64,000 nt of DNA from an uncultured Campylobacter sp. (GCF_938045345.1 NZ_CALIMS010000053.1:1099-65098); one strand, 5' to 3'; shown: positions 7,626 to 53,049, counted from the first letter of the stretch. Made by a program: numbers and translations. The notes: generated by a model not told the origin, from the sequence alone.

Positions 7626-7633
7626 AATTCGAG

Positions 7634-7696
7634 TAAATTTTAAAATTTAGCGGGGCGGGCAATTAAACGGCAGGCGCGACAAATAGGCGCTGCGAG
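7634..7696 (+). repeat. copy 1 of a ~63-nt direct repeat
   Basis: TAAATTTTAAAATTTAGCGGGG...GGCAGGCGCGAcAAAtAGGCGCTGCGA aligns at about 80 percent identity with 8242-8304. Confidence 0.7.
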
Positions 7697-8231
7697 AGAT
7701 TGAAACAAACGAGCCGAGAAGCGGCACGAAGCGTAAATTTAAAGCGAGCCGCCGCTAGAATTTATCGCCAGCGGTTTTTTGTGCGATGAAATGAAATTTA
7801 AAACAAACCCGCGTTGAAATTTTATAGCGTGAGCGATGCAACAAGAATGGCGCAGCGCAATTCGGCGCGAATGACACAACGCGTCGTTGGTATTTTGACA
7901 GTTTCGATAAGTGCGATATCGTTTTAGCGTAAATCATGCGACGCGGCGCCAGTGCAGCATAGGCGGCGCGATGTATGCGGATTTCAAGCAGACTGCCGCT
8001 AAATTTTTGCAGGTTGCGCTAGCGGTTTAAAACTTAAAACGAGCCGTCGTTGTAAAATTTAAAGCAAATCGTGCCGCGGCTAGGATTTAGCGCGCCTGCA
8101 AGCTAAATTTAAACGGCAGCGCGCGCCGTGTATGATCCCGCCGTTTCATTTAGTGCACCTACGAGCCAAATTTGCCGCTGAAATTTCAAAATTTGCGCTG
8201 CGCCAAAGAGTGCTTTGATATTACGATACGT

Positions 8232-8267
8232 GCCACCCCGCTAAATTTTAAAATTTAGCGGGGTGGC
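8232..8267. repeat. perfect 36-bp palindrome
   Basis: GCCACCCCGCTAAATTTT / AAAATTTAGCGGGGTGGC is an 18+18 perfect inverted repeat. It overlaps the start of direct-repeat copy 2. Confidence 0.9.
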
Positions 8268-8304
8268 CGTCAAGCGGCAGGCGCGATAAAACAGGCGCTG
8301 CGAA
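8242..8304 (+). repeat. copy 2 of a ~63-nt direct repeat
   Basis: See 7634-7696. The first 22 nt are identical, with one indel and scattered substitutions afterwards. Confidence 0.7.
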
Positions 8305-8427
8305 ATATTTTCAACAACCCTAAAATATCCGCAATAACAGAAAAAAATTCTCGCAAAATTTCCATAATAATGGCAAGAATTCCTACAAAAATTACCGCTA
8401 AAATTTCATGCAAAACCGCTGTAAAAT

Positions 8428-9084: not shown

Positions 9085-10071
9085 CTACGCAAAGGGCAGA
9101 ATTTTTTTGTAATTGCTCCACAGCTTGCTATCTTCGCCGAAATATGCAAGCAGTCCGCGCGCGTTGCGATCGAAAGGGTTGGGCTCTTTATGCAGCGCGA
9201 TACGCTGCGACAGGCGCAGATCGTAGGTGTTGTATATCGCGGAATACGGCACCGGAAAGTCCGAAGCGTAAAGCAAGCGCGAATGCACGTCCGTTTGGCT
9301 CGCCAGATGCGGCAGAGCCTTGGCGCGCACCGGCGTCATCAGCGCCGAAACGTCGGCGTAGAGGTTCTTGTGCGTGCGCAGAAGCGCTAAAAGCGCGAAA
9401 TAATCGTGTCCGAAATTTCGCGGGCGACGCGAGAGCGCACGAAAAATATGCGAATACTCGTAGTTAATCGCCATGTGCGCGCACACCGTCGTAACGCCCA
9501 GCTCAAGCGGCGCATAGATCATCTCCAGCGCTTCGCAGCGGCGCGTGCTCGGCACCGAGCTTTCGTTGCCGACGTGGATCACCAGCGGCAAGCCGAGCTT
9601 GGCGAGCTTTTCAAAATACGGCACGTAGCGAGGCAGCCTCGTATCCAGATCCCAATAGTTTTGTAAAAATTTCGCCCCCTTAAATCCAAGCTCAAAGCAG
9701 CGATCGATCTCATCTAGCGCGTCCGCTCGCTTCGGATTGATGCTAAAAAACGGCACGATGAGATCTGGGTTTTTTTGATAAATTTCAAACACGCTGTCGT
9801 TGTCCGCACAGACGGTCTTATCGCGATGGATTAGCTCGCCCGCGTCGCTAAATTTAGCATCCACGCCGAAAAGCACCGCCTTTTTAACGTATTTCGAAGC
9901 TCTAAGCCCGCCGAGCAGAGCGTCCACGTAGGCCTCGTATGGCTCTTTAATCGCGCGCGATACGTCTATGCCGAAGCGCCTGCCGAAAAGGCACAGCGCG
10001 AGCCTGTCGTAAGGGCGGTCGAAGCGCACCTCCTTGCTTAGCAGATGGACGTGAAAATCAAGCGTTTGCAT
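9085..10071 (-). CDS. amidohydrolase-family (TIM-barrel metal-dependent hydrolase) protein
   Basis: The N-terminal LDFHVHLL (HxH) motif, an internal VIHVG and a late ASDFP Asp motif are typical of the amidohydrolase_2 family. Confidence 0.65.
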   Translation of the reverse strand: MQTLDFHVHLLSKEVRFDRPYDRLALCLFGRRFGIDVSRAIKEPYEAYVDALLGGLRASKYVKKAVLFGVDAKFSDAGELIHRDKTVCADNDSVFEIYQKNPDLIVPFFSINPKRADALDEIDRCFELGFKGAKFLQNYWDLDTRLPRYVPYFEKLAKLGLPLVIHVGNESSVPSTRRCEALEMIYAPLELGVTTVCAHMAINYEYSHIFRALSRRPRNFGHDYFALLALLRTHKNLYADVSALMTPVRAKALPHLASQTDVHSRLLYASDFPVPYSAIYNTYDLRLSQRIALHKEPNPFDRNARGLLAYFGEDSKLWSNYKKILPFA

Positions 10072-10182: not shown

Positions 10183-10325
10183 GCGCGGACGTAGTCCGCC
10201 CCTTATAAAGCGTCGTCGGGGGTTAGGTGGGGTTTGTGGGCGAGCGGAGCAATGCGGTGCTGCGGGGCAGCGCCGCCTCCGCGAGAAGTGTGACCTCGCA
10301 ATTCAAGCCCCCTTTCTGCCCCCAA
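10183..10325 (+). repeat. structured GC-rich repeat element, copy A (solitary, expanded second hairpin)
   Basis: GCGCGGACGTAGTCCGC hairpin, then AAAGCGTCGTCGGGGGTTAGGTGGGGTTT, then GGGGCAG...GACCTCGCAATTCAAG...CTGCCCCCAAGA. It is homologous to the elements at 24.9-25.7 kb. Confidence 0.75.
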
Positions 10326-10666
10326 GATATTTCACATCTATTACGTAAACGCAATAGTACGTTCAACAAAATCAGGACTTGCACAACTAGAGTTTTAAAC
10401 AAAATTTTAAAATGTAAAATTGCAAAATTCTACTAATTGAAATTTATAACTTTACAGCCAAATTAATAGAATTATGTAACGAAAGTTTAGCACTCCATGT
10501 TATCGAACTTGCCGTACGAATATTTTTTCGTGGATGGAATATTTTAAGAAAAATAGGCAAAGGGCAAAGTATATAAAAGAGCGATTACGCACAAAATAGC
10601 CGAGTTGATACAAAAGCAAACCTAAAAGAATTTTCGGCTACAATTTCCCCCAAATAAAGGCAAAAT

Positions 10667-21651: not shown

Positions 21652-22524
21652 TTGAGATTTTTGGTGTTTATTTTCGCGTTTTTATTTATCGCGGCGATCT
21701 TTTTCGTGCGGGACGAAATTTTAAGCAAAAGGGCTAAAATCATCGCCACGGCGCTGATTGTACTGCTGTGCGCGGGAGCGTATTTTTATGAAAGCGCGAG
21801 CGAGCGCTCCGCCAAGCTTGAGGAGGAGATGGTGTTTAAATTTAACGCAGGCGCCAGATTAAGATGCGGCGGCGCGATAAATTTCACTTCCGAAACGCGT
21901 GGCGCGGCAAATTCCTCTCCCGAAACACGCGGCGCGGATGCGAAAAATTTGGGCGTGCAAGCCGGCGAAGTAAATTTAAACGCGCAGGACAGAGCCGCTT
22001 CCGCCGCGCAAACGAACGAGCAGGCTTCAGCCGCGCAAATAAACGGCGCTGTCTCGGGCGGACAAAATTCCGCACAAAGCCCTACTTCGCAAAATTCCGC
22101 CGAGCCTGGACAAAATTTTAAATCTCAAAATTCTACTAAAAATTTAGACGTAGCTTCACAAAATTCTACGCAGCAGAACGATACACAGAACCGCACGCCG
22201 CAAAATTCCACAGGCCAAGGAGGTACGCGAAGCTCTGCCTCACAAAATTCCGTGCAACTAGGCGACACGCAAACCTCTAATCCCCAAGGCTCCGCGCAGA
22301 ATTTTAACGTAGCCGAGCAAAATTCTATGCAAGGTTCTACAGCGCAGAATTCTAAAGCTACGCAAAATTTTGCTGCAGACAAAGAACAGGCCTCCGCGCA
22401 GATCGTGACGCGAGAAAATTTCACCTACTCCTTTTCGCTGGGCGCTTTCATCGCCAAAAAAAGCGCGGGCGCGGAGTTTAGGGGCAAAACTTATAAAATC
22501 AAAGAGTGCGTTTATGATCAGTGA
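21652..22524 (+). CDS. two-TM membrane protein with a ~175-aa Q/N/S-rich repeat insert
   Basis: TTG start, two N-terminal TM helices and a conserved-looking C-terminal tail. The position between murC and mutS2 matches a much shorter Campylobacter membrane protein (from memory). Confidence 0.5.
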   Translation: MRFLVFIFAFLFIAAIFFVRDEILSKRAKIIATALIVLLCAGAYFYESASERSAKLEEEMVFKFNAGARLRCGGAINFTSETRGAANSSPETRGADAKNLGVQAGEVNLNAQDRAASAAQTNEQASAAQINGAVSGGQNSAQSPTSQNSAEPGQNFKSQNSTKNLDVASQNSTQQNDTQNRTPQNSTGQGGTRSSASQNSVQLGDTQTSNPQGSAQNFNVAEQNSMQGSTAQNSKATQNFAADKEQASAQIVTRENFTYSFSLGAFIAKKSAGAEFRGKTYKIKECVYDQ

Positions 22525-24721
22525 CGAACTCTTTACGCGCCTCGATCTAGGCGAGTATCTAGCCAAATTTAAAAGCTTTTTGGCGCGCGAAAAGCCGCTG
22601 TTTTTAAGCGGCGATAGCAAGCTGAATTTTGAAAAAATTTCAGAGCTTACGAAATTTGATCTCGCGCAGTGCGAGAGCGTCGCGAACCTAGACGACGCGC
22701 TGATGCGCATCTCAAAGCATGGCGTGCTTCATATCAGCGAAATTTACGAGTTTAGCAAGATCGTCCGATATTTTCTGTACCTCAAAAAGCAGCCTTTTGA
22801 GGGCAAACTTGCCGCTTGGCTTGCCAAGATCGAAATTCCTGCGCCTATCGCGCAATTAAAGGATTATTTCGACGATCAGGGCGGCTTTCGCGACGCGATA
22901 GACGAGCGCTTCGGCGCGCTAAACGAGGCGTTTAAGATAAAAAAGGGCGAGATCGAACAGACGCTAAAAAGGCTGATCTATTCCAAAGCCCTTTCGCCCT
23001 ATCTCGCCGACACGCAGATCCACTACATAAGCGATACCGAGGCTCTGCTGGTGCGCGGCGGCTTTAATCACGTGCTAAAAGGCAGCGTCGTAGCGCGCTC
23101 AAGCGGAGGCTATTTTTACGTGCTTCCAGACGCGATCGCAGCTCTGAAGTCCGCTCAAAGCGCGATTTTGGATAAAAAAGAGCAGATCGTATTCGAGCAT
23201 TGCAAGCAGATTAGCGCAGTTTTTAATAAAAACTTAGCCTTTCTGAAATTTATAAACGCCGCTTTCGACGCGATTGACGCGCTGATTGCGCGCGCTGCGA
23301 TGGCAAGAGCGAGCGATTACGAGTTCGTCCTGCCCGAGCCTTCGCGCGACATCGTCCTAGATAGCTTCGCCCACCCCGCGCTTAAAAATCCAAAGCGCGT
23401 GAGCGTGGAATTTAGCGGAAAAATTCTGCTCATCACTGGCGTAAATGCGGGCGGAAAATCGATGCTTTTAAAAAGCATTCTAAGCGCGGCGCTGCTAGCC
23501 AAATACCTCCTTCCGATGCCTATTCGCGCAAGCCTCAGCCGCATCGGCACCTTTAAGGAGTTCGAGCTCATAATGGAGGATCCGCAAAACTCCAAAAACG
23601 ACATCTCGACCTTTGCAGGCAGAATGGTTGCCTTTAGCAAGCTGTTCGGGCGCAAAGAGATTCTAATCGGCGTCGATGAGATCGAGCTGGGTACCGATTT
23701 TGAGGAGGCTGCAAGCCTATACGGCGCGATGATCGAGCAGCTGATGAGCGGCGACGTGAAGATGATCATCACCACGCATCACAAGCGCCTGGCGATGCTG
23801 CTTGCGAAAGATCCGCGCGTGGAGCTGCTGGCGGCACTTTACGACGAGAAAAACAGCGCGCCGAAGTATGAGTTTTTAAAGGGCACGATCGGCAAATCCT
23901 ACGCCTTTGAAACCGCGCTGCGCTACGGCATAGCGCAAAATTTGATCGCCGCGGCGCGCAAAAACTACGGCGAAAACAAAGAAAATTTAAACGAAGCGAT
24001 CTCAAAAGCGATAAATTTAGAGCTTGAGCTAAAACAAAAGCTGGCGCAGACGCAGCAAAAAGAGGAGAAGTTAGACGCGCTGAGCGAAGCGCTAAAAGAT
24101 CAGCGCGAGCGTGCGCAAAGCGAGCTGAGGGCGGAGCTTTCAAGGCTGCAAAACGAATACTACCGCGCGATTTCGGAGGCCAAACGCAGCGTGAGCCTAA
24201 GCGACGTGCGCGAAAAGCAGCGCGCCATAAACCGCGCAAACGAGCTTGCACGAGCCGTGCAGCAGCCCGAACTCAGCACGCCCGAGCCGCAAAGCCTCAA
24301 GGTGGGCGATCGCGTCAAATACGGCAAGATCAAGGGCGAAATTTTATCGCTCAGCAAAACCCAGGCGCTGATGCTAAGCGACGGCATCAGGCTGCGCGTG
24401 CCGCTTAGCGAGCTAAAGCGCAGCGGTGCGACGCCCGCGTCCGTAAAAAATATCAGTATCAAGGTGCAAAAGCCCGCCTCCGCGTCGCTCGTGCTCGATC
24501 TGCACGGCTTGCGCGCCGAGGAAGCAATCAGCAGGCTTGATAAATTTATCAGCCAAAGCCTCGTGATGGGCTTTGATGAGATCATCGTCAAGCACGGCAT
24601 CGGCACGGGCAAGCTCGCGTTCGCGGTCAAGGAGTTTTTAAAATCACACCCGAGCGTCAAGGGCTTTCGCGACGGCACGCCCGCAGAAGGGGGCTTCGGC
24701 TCAAAGGTCGTCTCGCTTTAG
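22514..24721 (+). CDS. mutS2: endonuclease MutS2 (MutS-II ATPase with C-terminal Smr domain)
   Basis: Walker A ITGVNAGGKS, MutS domain V, a long coiled coil and a C-terminal Smr domain (LDLHGLRAEEA). Confidence 0.9.
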   Translation: MISDELFTRLDLGEYLAKFKSFLAREKPLFLSGDSKLNFEKISELTKFDLAQCESVANLDDALMRISKHGVLHISEIYEFSKIVRYFLYLKKQPFEGKLAAWLAKIEIPAPIAQLKDYFDDQGGFRDAIDERFGALNEAFKIKKGEIEQTLKRLIYSKALSPYLADTQIHYISDTEALLVRGGFNHVLKGSVVARSSGGYFYVLPDAIAALKSAQSAILDKKEQIVFEHCKQISAVFNKNLAFLKFINAAFDAIDALIARAAMARASDYEFVLPEPSRDIVLDSFAHPALKNPKRVSVEFSGKILLITGVNAGGKSMLLKSILSAALLAKYLLPMPIRASLSRIGTFKEFELIMEDPQNSKNDISTFAGRMVAFSKLFGRKEILIGVDEIELGTDFEEAASLYGAMIEQLMSGDVKMIITTHHKRLAMLLAKDPRVELLAALYDEKNSAPKYEFLKGTIGKSYAFETALRYGIAQNLIAAARKNYGENKENLNEAISKAINLELELKQKLAQTQQKEEKLDALSEALKDQRERAQSELRAELSRLQNEYYRAISEAKRSVSLSDVREKQRAINRANELARAVQQPELSTPEPQSLKVGDRVKYGKIKGEILSLSKTQALMLSDGIRLRVPLSELKRSGATPASVKNISIKVQKPASASLVLDLHGLRAEEAISRLDKFISQSLVMGFDEIIVKHGIGTGKLAFAVKEFLKSHPSVKGFRDGTPAEGGFGSKVVSL

Positions 24722-24908
24722 GCTCTAGCTCAAAGGTCTTTTCGCTTCAGACGCCAGCGCGAACGATGCGGAATTCGCTCATGTCATCTATGCCTTCGCC
24801 GAGGTTTTGCAAAAGCACGGGTGTTTTTAACGTAGAATTTCGCCGCGGAATTTGTAGCTTGGCTTTTACACTAAAATTTTATGCGGCGTGAGCCGCAATT
24901 CAAATAAC

Positions 24909-25007
24909 GCGGACGTAGTCCGCACCGCTTAAAGCGTCGTCGGGGGATGGGTGGGGTTTGGGGCGGGAAGGGGAGCGACCTCGCAATTCAAGCTCCCTTC
25001 CCGCCCC
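24909..25007 (+). repeat. structured GC-rich repeat element, copy B (best-formed copy)
   Basis: Hairpin 1 is GCGGAC-GTA-GTCCGC. A G-run segment follows. Hairpin 2 is GGGGCGGGAAGGGGAGC-GACCTCGCAATTCAA-GCTCCCTTCCCGCCCC. Confidence 0.8.
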
Positions 25008-25234
25008 AAATGCGGTACTGAGCTTAGACGCAGAATTTTACCTTAAAATTCTGCGGCGAAATTCTAATACAGTTTTGCACAAGAGTTTTATAGTTTAGCT
25101 TTGCGATAAATTTCAGCGAGAACTTGCGCCAAATTTACACGATACAGCCGTTTTCAGTATGGCTTTGCGTTAAATTTTATAAAAATGTAGTTGCACCAGA
25201 ACTTCATACGGTGTAGTCGCAATGTAAAATAAGC

Positions 25235-25320
25235 GCGGACGTAGTCCGCACCGCTAGCGTCGCGCGGGTGGGGGTTGGTAAGGGGGCGCCCCGCTAACTC
25301 TGAGCGCCGCCCCCCCTTAC
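25235..25320 (+). repeat. structured GC-rich repeat element, copy C
   Basis: Hairpin 1 is identical to copy B. The G-run reads GGGTGGGGGTTGG. Hairpin 2 has a different sequence but is still self-complementary (GTAAGGGGGCG...GCCCCCCCTTAC). Confidence 0.75.
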
Positions 25321-25410
25321 GGATTATGTGTAACGCATACGCCGGCTCGAATTTATAAAGATTTCACTATGTTAAATTTCAGTATTTTTAGCTCTTTGTG
25401 TATTTCTTTC

Positions 25411-25458
25411 GGGGCAGGAAAGGGAGCGACCTCGCAATCGGGGCCTCCTTCCCGCCCC
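25411..25458 (+). repeat. structured GC-rich repeat element, copy D (hairpin 2 only)
   Basis: GGGGCAGGAAAGGGAG-CGACCTCGCAATCGGGG-CCTCCTTCCCGCCCC, followed by AAGAGAAA as in copy E. Confidence 0.65.
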
Positions 25459-25611
25459 AAGAGAAACATATCGTGGGTTAAAATTTAAACGGAATTTTAT
25501 AAAGGCAAGTGCTACTTTTAAATTTATAAATAGCGAAACGGCAATATAAATTTGGAATTTAAAATTTCGCTATATAAAATTTTATCTCTAGAGATTAGGT
25601 CGTGGCGACGT

Positions 25612-25712
25612 TTTCTCTTAAGGGGGAAGGGGCGCTACTTGCGAGGCGCTCCCCTTCGCTCTTAAAATCCCCCAACCCCTGGTACGCTAAAGGGGCGAGC
25701 CTTACGGCTCGC
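25612..25712 (-). repeat. structured GC-rich repeat element, copy E (inverted orientation)
   Basis: The reverse complement reads GCGAGCC-GTAA-GGCTCGC, then CCCTTTAGCGTACCAGGGGTTGGGGG, then GAAGGGGAGCGC-CTCGCAAGTA-GCGCCCCTTC, then AAGAGAAA. Confidence 0.75.
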
Positions 25713-25781
25713 GTTAAATTTTAATAGGGGTTGAATTACGGCATGCTAAATTTTAAAATTTAGCCGAAATTTACAGCTCAC

Positions 25782-25944
25782 AAAATTTTAAAATTCCAAA
25801 CACAAAAGAATTTTGAAATTCCAAATACGATAAAATTTAAGCTACGGCGGAATTTTAGAATTCCTATTAGCGGCGGAATTTCAGAATTCTTATAGGCAGC
25901 GGAATTTCAAAATTCCGTAAATTTGAGCGAAATTCTGAAATTCC
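25782..25944 (+). promoter_or_regulatory. array of six imperfect palindromes (GGAATTT-N2-GAATTCC type) upstream of the CorA-family gene
   Basis: The units end at about 25797, 25822, 25864, 25890, 25916 and 25944. The last four are spaced 26-28 nt apart, and the array ends 34 nt before the TTG start at 25978. Confidence 0.5.
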
Positions 25945-25977
25945 GCAAATTTAAAACGATTGAATAAGGAGGTCTCA

Positions 25978-26700
25978 TTGAACCCGATTACCGAAAAGCG
26001 CAGCGTTTCGGGCTACTACTACGCCGAGGAGCGCGAGTATGTGTACTTCGTGACGGATGCGCCGCGCGAGCAAAACTACCGCTTTATTTTTGATGCGGGC
26101 GCGATCTATTCGCAAGATGACGCGGGCGGCGAGGTGCGGCTTAGCAGCGAAGCGGAGTTTTTCGCGGTCGTCAAAAAGATCCTCGCGCAGTATCGCGATA
26201 AAATTTTAGAGCACTCCGCGGAGCTTGAGAATTACGAAAAGATCTACACGCGGCGCGGCGATTTTTCAAAATTTATGAAAAGGCACTCTGTCCTAAAATA
26301 CGAAATCCGCAAATTTCAAAACAAAATTTCGCATTTCTACGAGGCGCTGCTCATCTGCGCAAATGAGCAGCCGGCGCTGAAAAAACAGCTGAAAAACTAC
26401 GCCTACGAAGCGGGCGTTTTTAAAGGCGTGATGAGCGAATATGCCGTCAGGATCGAGGATATCTATCAGTTCATCCAGGGTCTCAAAAACGACAAAATTA
26501 GCCGCAACATCTACATTCTCACGATCATCTCGTCGCTGCTGATGCCGCTAAATTTCATCACGAGCTTTTTCGGGATGAACACGACGGGGCTATTTTTAAG
26601 CGGCTCGGCGCACGGCACGCTCATCGTGACGCTTGCGATGTGCGTGATCTTCGCGGCGATGGTCGGCTTTCTTATGCTCTACGCCAAAAAACGAAGCTAA
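25978..26700 (+). CDS. CorA/ZntB-family divalent cation transporter (short form)
   Basis: The C-terminus has two TM helices with the signature LNFITSFFGMN (GMN motif). The ORF opens at 25960, but the TTG at 25978 lies 6 nt after AAGGAGG. Confidence 0.7.
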   Translation: MNPITEKRSVSGYYYAEEREYVYFVTDAPREQNYRFIFDAGAIYSQDDAGGEVRLSSEAEFFAVVKKILAQYRDKILEHSAELENYEKIYTRRGDFSKFMKRHSVLKYEIRKFQNKISHFYEALLICANEQPALKKQLKNYAYEAGVFKGVMSEYAVRIEDIYQFIQGLKNDKISRNIYILTIISSLLMPLNFITSFFGMNTTGLFLSGSAHGTLIVTLAMCVIFAAMVGFLMLYAKKRS

Positions 26701-28009: not shown

Positions 28010-28725
28010 GGGCTTTTCACGCCCTCAAATAGCACTGCGCCGTAAGAATACAATTTAAGCGGCCGGTAGCGCGCCAAAGGCCCAAAAAAAGCCAGCCGGA
28101 TAGCAAAGCCGCGCAAGATGGGGCTTGTACCAAAAGGACGATAAGCGTTGCGAGCCGTATCGTCAAATGAGCCTAGCTACGCCGCCGAAACGGAGCCCCG
28201 CCTGAAACTCAAATCGGCGCACCGCAAAACGTCCCGCACTGGTGCGCCCATAGAGTGGATTGAGCAAAATTTAAAATTTCGCCGCTTTTTCTCCGCCTCT
28301 CGCAGAAGCCGCATCGATTTAAAATTTTAACGCGCCGAGGACGAACAGATCGGCCGCTGCAAAATCTGCGATAGCCAAAAATCTACAAGCGGCGTCGAAA
28401 CGGGCGCGACAAGAAAACTAATAGGCGGCGTCGCGCCTGCTTCGTAAAACCGCGGCGGGCTGATTGCCGAGGAGCCGCTTAGTGCAGCATTTAAACCGCC
28501 GCGCAAAAAAGATAAAATTTATCTTTTCGCGCATGATGATTTGCGCCGCATCTACAAACAAATGAAGCTCGCAGGCTCTTGGCGGTCGATGGCGCCGCTA
28601 TTACGCCGCTTAAACCTGCGCGGATCTAAAATTTTATAAATTAAAATTCCATGTCGCGGACAATTTAAAATTTCGCGCTTCAAACGATCTGTAAATTCCG
28701 TGCTTCAGGCTGTAGCAATTAGATC

Positions 28726-43927: not shown

Positions 43928-52650
<8,723 letters not shown>

Positions 52651-52665
52651 TTAAAATTTCGCGAT

Positions 52666-53049
52666 TTATTTGAGTTCGACTTTAGCGCCTGCTTCTTCAA
52701 GCTCTTTTTTAGCCTTCTCGGCGTCTTCTTTGTTAAGTCCCTCTTTAAGAACGGACGGAGTAGCCTCGGTAGCGTCTTTGGCTTCTTTTAGACCAAGACC
52801 TGTTAGGGCGCGAACGACCTTAATTACGTTGATTTTCTTATCGCCCGCATCAAGCAATACGACGTCGAATTCCGTTTTCTCTTCAGCTGCTGCCGCACCT
52901 GCGCCGCCAGCACCTGCGCCGCCAGCTACCATAACCGGAGCCGCGCTTACGCCGAATTTTTCCTCAAATTTTTTAACTAGTTCGCTAAGCTCTAGCACCG
53001 AACGATTAGAGATATACTCCAAAACCTCTTCATCTGTTGAAATTGCCAT
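52666..53049 (-). CDS. rplL: 50S ribosomal protein L7/L12
   Basis: 127 aa with an Ala/Gly hinge and a C-terminal domain ([17 protein letters not shown]...). Confidence 0.97.

Follow-up and report, generated by a model that had tools for sequence, protein, structure and literature searches.

A candidate lineage-specific family of modular GC-rich hairpin cassettes in intergenic and prophage DNA of Campylobacter gracilis and close relatives

The window analysed here, a 64-kb stretch (64,000 nt) from an uncultured Campylobacter sp., contains a gap of 1238 nt between mutS2 (22514-24721, + strand, with Smr and MutS_V domains) and a CorA-like gene (25960-26700, + strand). These two genes form the left and right borders of a repeat array and are context only, lying outside the element itself. 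The longest ORFs inside the gap are 40-46 aa. The initial annotation had described the gap as ORF-free and occupied by four related elements, with one more copy (A) elsewhere, and this was confirmed by an ORF scan and by profile and covariance-model searches. An nhmmer profile and an unfiltered covariance-model search each found exactly five copies (A-E) at two loci in the whole window, with E-values from 1e-30 to 1e-6. Directly upstream of the CorA-like gene, at 25845-25945, there are also four tandem units of ~26 nt, CGGCGGAATTT(T/C)A(G/A)AATTC..., a candidate array that could serve as operator or binding sites. A second ORF-poor gap (7626-8427) contains a different repeat, AAATTTTAAAATTTAGCGGGGYGG...ACGGCAGGCGCGAYAAA...GGCGCTGCGA, at 7636-7700 and 8243-8305, together with a perfect palindrome, CCACCCCGCTAAATTTTAAAATTTAGCGGGGTGG, at 8233-8266.

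The units are 100-160 bp long and contain two different hairpins. From head to tail, the order is an optional upstream hairpin (H0), an AT box, a first hairpin (H1) and, after a short linker that varies, the word AGCGT, then two or three G-runs, a second hairpin (H2) and a tail, which is CCCCAAGAGAAA or CTTACGAAT. A perfect H0 was present in 18 of 96 distinct upstream contexts. H1 is a GC hairpin of 5-7 bp for which 14 different perfect stems occur across the family (for example, GCGGAC/GTCCGC, GCGAGC/GCTCGC, GCGAGCC/GGCTCGC, GCGAGCT/AGCTCGC, GCAGGC/GCCTGC, CGCGC/GCGCG and TGAGCC/GGCTCA), and its loop varies as well (GTA, GCA, ACA, ATA, GAA, GTAA, GCAA or TTAC). The apex of H2 carries GCG(A)CCTCGCAA, and the H2 bodies were sorted into type 1 (copies B and D), type 2 (copy C) and type 3 (copy E), each with optional apical insertions. 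In the 1L body (copy A), a hairpin of ~45 nt replaces the 5' arm and the 3' arm pairs with the G-runs; in the 3L body the apex is longer by ~65 nt. H1 variants are shuffled among the body types, and L102 has chimeric bodies. High conservation was seen in the AT box and in two unpaired words, AGCGT and CCTCGCAA, which suggests sequence-specific recognition; the invariance of AGCGT is partly by construction because this word was the anchor in collecting copies.

Copy A (10183-10331, + strand, body type 1L) was found by both nhmmer and the covariance model. H1 spans 10185-10199 and the word AGCGT 10209-10213; the G-runs come next, and the 3' arm and tail extend to ~10331. The extra inner hairpin of ~45 nt stands where the 5' arm of H2 would be, and in this respect the element plan given by the initial annotation, which held overall, has to be amended; orthologues of the same locus in ~14 relatives have the short type 1 body. 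Copy B (24907-25015, + strand, type 1, 128 bits with the covariance model) comprises H1 at 24909-24923, AGCGT at 24933-24937, G-runs at 24942-24963 and H2 at 24957-25010, then the tail. The plan proposed earlier for this copy also stood, except that it did not list the optional H0 that precedes it (24883-24898, + strand, TGCGGC GTGA GCCGCA); the AT box lies between H0 and H1 at 24899-24908 (+ strand). Copy C (25233-25325, + strand, H1 at 25235-25249, H2 at ~25276-25320) has a type 2 body in a short-loop variant, CCCGCTAA. Copy D (25408-25466, + strand) is a 5'-truncated type 1 unit of which only H2 and the tail CCCCAAGAGAAA are left, and its full-length counterpart with the same tail flank was found in L011 and L026. 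Copy E (25612-25714, - strand) is of type 3, with H1 (GCGAGCC TTAC/GTAA GGCTCGC) at 25695-25712 and H2 at 25612-25665. The H1 stem is GCGGAC/GTCCGC in copies A, B and C and GCGAGCC/GGCTCGC in copy E, and the H2 loop word CTCGCAA is found in A, B, D and E, with CCCGCTAA in its place in C. The H1 stems, H2 arms, loop word and neighbouring A/T hexamers quoted earlier are all present in the sequence. Copies A, B and D folded better than shuffled sequences (z of -3.2 to -4.0), and the folds of C and E were weaker relative to shuffles (z of -1.2 and -1.9). Copy B also holds GGGGGATGGGTGGGGTTTGGGG (24942-24963), the sole canonical G-quadruplex motif on both strands of the 64-kb window.

The AT box, with the consensus WWAAAATTTARC in 90 distinct upstream contexts, lies immediately 5' of H1. 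The -10-like hexamer that had been noticed beside each full copy is present, and in the 90 contexts the box keeps a constant spacing to H1: a TAAAAT-like hexamer stops 5 nt short of the hairpin's first paired base, and in 41 of them the strict form TANAAT has its end 4-7 nt upstream of H1. A transcript would thus be predicted to start where the hairpin begins, which is what one would expect of a dedicated RNA gene. On the strand of the element the box is -10-like; read on the opposite strand, it follows H1 as a T-rich tract. Its motif is close to a genome-wide word, AAATTTTAAAATTT. This word and its near variants were seen in nearly every intergenic region of the window (e.g., 25746-25774, 28264-28292 and 52644-52672), where RAATTY-type sites overlap it, and it is similar to the AT box beside H1. 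On the + strand, no T-tract or terminator was found after H2 in any body type. On the opposite strand the consensus after H1 is GYUAAAUUUU, which is only weakly terminator-like and has AAA conserved at the place where termination calls for U. Among 118 strand-specific detections of perfect GC hairpins in the window, five distinct hairpins had at least five T in the next 8 nt, and two of the five were the opposite-strand H1 of copies B and C.

We scanned species-representative genomes with a pattern of H1 plus AGCGT, and metagenomes with the H2 apex as query. Both scans together recovered ~190 further copies (~109 distinct and full-length) in ~107 loci, all of which belong to Campylobacter gracilis or its close relatives, plus a P2/Mu-like prophage tail operon. 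The copies are thus not a local duplication private to one strain, as dozens of related genomes have them, at loci that are orthologous in some cases and not in others. One IMG/VR contig carries the element, and no element match was found in GenBank phages or PLSDB plasmids. The H1 pattern also matched sequences from GC-rich Actinomycetota, Cardiobacterium and others, which were set aside as chance hits. The nearest outgroup campylobacters, with 62% amino-acid identity in the flanking amidohydrolase, 36% GC and a different synteny, are without the element. The earlier statement that the element belongs to no Rfam family was borne out by covariance-model scans at gathering and permissive thresholds: the whole window searched against Rfam 15 at gathering score gave five tRNAs only, and the permissive scan of 24700-26000 gave only sub-threshold miRNA-hairpin matches. 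In the searchable literature we found no description of the element, and repeat families of such a kind are essentially undescribed in Campylobacter.

The recovered loci represent only ~8 genomic contexts, namely mutS2/corA, threonine dehydratase/DUF4230, Aas-175 aa/229 aa, amidohydrolase/MatE (copy A), SNF/LysE, two more on the chromosome and the tail module of the P2/Mu-like prophage. The neighbouring genes (amidohydrolase, MatE, MutS2, CorA-like, DUF4230, threonine dehydratase, LysE, SNF and Aas) are functionally unrelated. Chromosomal units sit in a few long AT-rich intergenic regions, where their heads face gene starts (often from 30-250 nt upstream), gene ends or another head. Arrays of up to five copies alternate in orientation, with ~58 nt between heads and 105-150 nt between tails; the L134 array, for example, reads 1< 2> 1L< 2> 1< (body types, with arrows for orientation), with 58 nt head-to-head and 120-150 nt tail-to-tail. 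The combination of types in the mutS2-corA gap differs in nearly every relative: in 28 relatives it held at least seven type combinations ({2>1<}, {1L>2<}, {1>2<}, {2>3<}, {3>1L<}, {1>3L<} and {1>2>1p>3<}), and the cassette type can differ even where the flanks have 98-99% identity. The mutS2-corA arrays are without exception convergent, the first copy being forward and the last backward, with the outermost H1 pointing outward, a rule that fails in L134 and at the LysE-SNF locus. The extra copy B of the window can be explained by unequal exchange between H1 copies. In L020, copy B's own H0/H1 is joined directly to a type 2 body.

The gene pairs that border the arrays differ between genomes, and the arrays coincide with synteny breakpoints. 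In the outgroups L137, L139 and L140, MerR, Aas (1147 aa) and the amidohydrolase are contiguous, and the C. gracilis group has Aas apart from the amidohydrolase, each at its own element-bordered locus (L129 and window positions 9085-10071). Many MAG contigs end inside elements; assembly therefore breaks at the repeats. In L020, a public MAG contig, the last ~40 nt (locus 1-45) contain a Nextera adapter, CTGTCTCTTATACACATCTCCGAGCCCACGAGAC, joined straight to a truncated element. No transposase was seen next to any array, and the head (..AAAATTTARC-H1) and tail (..CCCCAAGAGAAA) of the unit do not match each other in inverted orientation. The search for an empty site yielded none: the window is without the other loci, and the outgroups have a different synteny. 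Because no transposase or RAYT (IS200-like TnpA) gene, terminal inverted repeats or target duplication was found, the elements can be called mobile only in the sense of recombination.

In the P2/Mu-like prophage, elements fill the short gaps between genes of the tail module (sheath, tube, tape measure, gpU and gpD). The modules of L018, L133 and L136 carry two or three copies, which are in one orientation relative to transcription, and the C-rich strand is the mRNA sense in all prophage copies. From H1 to the ATG of the next gene there are 27-35 nt, which include a Shine-Dalgarno sequence, and in L133 H1 is followed by UUUUAUUUU. This uniform orientation hints at an orientation-dependent, and so RNA-level, role. 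The slot before the tail-sheath gene is occupied by a type 2 element in L018 and by an unrelated GC-rich three-hairpin cassette in L133 (1395-1500) and also in L136; at this slot we observed cassette replacement and no clean insertion. From these sequences, the intergenic hairpin cassettes of the prophage appear to be exchangeable.

H1 and H2 both covary. In a MAFFT alignment of 30 distinct copies, 96% of the H1 cells were paired and double changes occurred in four of seven pairs, a level that was reached in none of 500 shuffles, with ~30% pairing in slid controls. For H1 and H2 together (144 matches, 133 distinct), in an alignment that was fitted to the structure model and whose cells count sequences and not independent events, 94% of the cells were paired, 23 of 25 pairs had double changes and there were 369 double-change cells vs. 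93±7 in shuffles; again none of 500 shuffles matched, and slid controls were paired at 42-59%. The initial annotation was therefore correct that the stems differ between copies yet stay complementary. Its further suggestion, that this is the pattern expected of a functional structure in RNA or single-stranded DNA, holds as far as the conserved, covarying hairpins are concerned, but the covariation does not show an RNA, since G.U (75 cells) and A.C (60 cells) mismatches within the stems, with the basal pair left out, were about equally common. In RNA under selection, G.U normally far outnumbers A.C on the strand of the RNA itself. Because the two mismatches are equally common, neither strand looks like selected RNA. 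The alifold energies were nearly equal, being slightly better for the + strand (-92 kcal/mol) than for the opposite strand (-82 kcal/mol). In 1L variants the 3' arm of H2 pairs with the G-runs only via G.U on the + strand, and several imperfect H1 variants have A.C on the + strand, which is G.U on the opposite strand. Strand assignment by G.U/A.C counts, MFE and both-strand alifold was ambiguous. Among the eight orthologues of copy A (locus I), pi was 0.013-0.021 in the element vs. 0.009-0.029 in the surrounding intergenic DNA, both well under that at third codon positions (0.09-0.13); purifying selection on copy A was rejected, as the element does not exceed its intergenic surroundings in conservation.

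Our best reading, in which we place about even confidence, is that the family consists of lineage-specific modular GC-rich hairpin cassettes, mosaic intergenic repeats of the REP/BIME, BOX or NIME kind that are reshuffled by recombination. The initial annotation had offered a novel structured RNA or a REP-like family; the latter fits better because context, orientation and neighbours vary as they do in REP/BIME-like repeats, and the former is less well supported; even so, strict REP membership fails on size, copy number and the GTAG signature. Between close relatives the cassettes are swapped, chimerised, duplicated, truncated and inverted. We infer that exchange between copies, through homologous recombination and gene conversion, accounts for their spread and reshuffling and that transposition does not; they are also likely to promote rearrangements. 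Complementarity would be kept either because the hairpin itself matters or because palindromes self-correct by template switching. The effect on the cell would be generic and dependent on context: the stem-loops, co-transcribed in neighbouring mRNAs, may act as 3'-end barriers, attenuators or insulators, and the AT box beside H1 may add weak promoter or terminator activity. Against this reading, the copy number is low, unlike that of the classical REP, BOX and Correia families.

There is room for other readings because the -10-like box is fixed, the single-stranded words are conserved, the orientation in the phage is uniform and types change between 98-99% identical flanks. Only tentatively, the cassettes could be either sibling sRNA genes of 100-160 nt shared with the prophage, each with its own promoter abutting the 5' hairpin, or convergent pairs that constitute a recombination-driven shuffling system, in which a swap or inversion between palindromic H1 sites would re-wire promoter, terminator or insulator activity near genes such as corA. 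Taken by itself, the proposal that these are sibling sRNA genes on the G-rich (+) strand, with TAAAAT 5 nt before H1 as a sigma-70 -10 box, seems rather unlikely. Such an RNA would start at the base of H1, present AGCGT and the G-runs as single-stranded recognition sequences and end at or beyond H2, which would protect its 3' end. The AT box at a fixed distance (strict TANAAT in 41/90 contexts) and the head-to-head spacing of ~58 nt, which is that of back-to-back promoters, argue for it; however, the AT motif is close to the genome-wide word, promoters in the prophage would fire antisense to the tail operon, and H2 of every type lacks a following U-tract or terminator. Sibling sRNA loci likewise are few and clustered, but truncated and chimeric copies are tolerated. 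H1 and H2 covary and apical insertions lengthen H2, as in structured RNAs; the pairing in 1L needs G.U and alifold favours the + strand, and against this there is no excess of G.U over A.C.

Less likely still is an RNA read from the opposite, C-rich strand, either a C-rich sRNA or a terminator/attenuator cassette embedded in mRNAs. The order would then be H2, single-stranded C-runs, ACGCU and H1 with its U-rich tract, H0 being a second hairpin. A covarying stem free in sequence has the look of a terminator stem, and two of the window's five T-followed GC hairpins are H1 of copies B and C; on the other hand, GYUAAAUUUU after the stem has AAA where U is needed. This strand is the mRNA sense in all prophage copies and H1 of L133 runs into UUUUAUUUU, but efficient termination there would cut off essential downstream tail genes, and a search for a promoter at a fixed position in the tail spacers found none. 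Similarly, the outermost mutS2-corA copies always point H1 outward, an orientation rule that L134 and the LysE-SNF locus break, and the A.C pairs of imperfect H1 on the + strand become G.U here, although the stems as a whole have no wobble asymmetry. Finally, a cis-leader or riboswitch, a type I toxin-antitoxin or small-protein locus, or a G-quadruplex switch is very improbable: the first, to which heads 30-250 nt upstream of gene starts would point, is largely refuted by downstream genes that are unrelated and of no one class and by copies that face gene ends; the second, for which it counts that low-copy intergenic repeats in E. coli proved to be type I toxin-antitoxin loci, has no conserved ORF, its putative ORFs being without Shine-Dalgarno sequences and destroyed by 3- and 5-nt indels between variants; and the third, prompted by the window's only canonical motif in copy B, is largely refuted by its absence from copies A, C and E.

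The family marks rearrangement breakpoints in the C. gracilis species complex, breaks metagenome assemblies and links chromosome and prophage. If the cassettes are discrete RNAs, they would represent a new epsilonproteobacterial sRNA family with an unusual modular evolution. If they are not, they would offer a compact and tractable case of hairpin complementarity kept in DNA repeats without a strand-specific RNA signature, and a caution for covariation-based RNA discovery.

On the features tested, the family is not a strict member of the REP, MITE/Correia or Rfam families, and its likeness to known systems is partial. Correia elements, the MITEs of Neisseria, are similar in their length of 100-160 bp, in -10-like end boxes that are able to create promoters and in their insertion within operons. 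However, the Campylobacter elements have no terminal inverted repeats and no detectable TA duplication, and Correia elements lack comparable body-type modules. The sibling sRNAs, such as LhrC1-5 of Listeria and the streptococcal csRNAs, are also units of ~100 nt, with several in one intergenic region and single ones elsewhere, and are built of a 5' hairpin, a single-stranded G- or C-rich stretch and a 3' hairpin. They differ in having clear promoters, U-tract terminators, one orientation and demonstrated transcripts, whereas the Campylobacter units alternate in orientation, have no terminator after H2 and include truncated and chimeric copies.

BOX of Streptococcus pneumoniae and NIME/dRS3 of Neisseria resemble the family in their interchangeable sub-units and optional internal modules, their strong predicted secondary structure, their restriction to a lineage and their mosaic arrays that differ between strains, and dRS3 is also found in prophage DNA. 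To our knowledge, the sequences of BOX and dRS3 appear unrelated to those of the Campylobacter family; its copy number is much lower than that of BOX and NIME/dRS3, and dRS3 and boxA/C are conserved in sequence, whereas the stem of H1 is free. With respect to REP/BIME, the Campylobacter unit is 100-160 bp with two unrelated hairpins compared with one imperfect palindrome of 20-40 bp, typically ~35 bp, in REP, it lacks a conserved GTAG signature (GT(A/G)G in REP), no RAYT gene is known for it, and tens of copies in ~8 contexts (the 64-kb window and the recovered loci) compare with hundreds genome-wide. Nevertheless, both are GC-rich palindromic units confined to intergenic DNA, with several unit types in alternating arrays that have characteristic head-to-head and tail-to-tail linkers, and the order H0-AT box-H1 is reminiscent of REP-IHF site-REP. 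Both would be expected to act as 3' stabilisers or attenuators when co-transcribed and to be hotspots of rearrangement.
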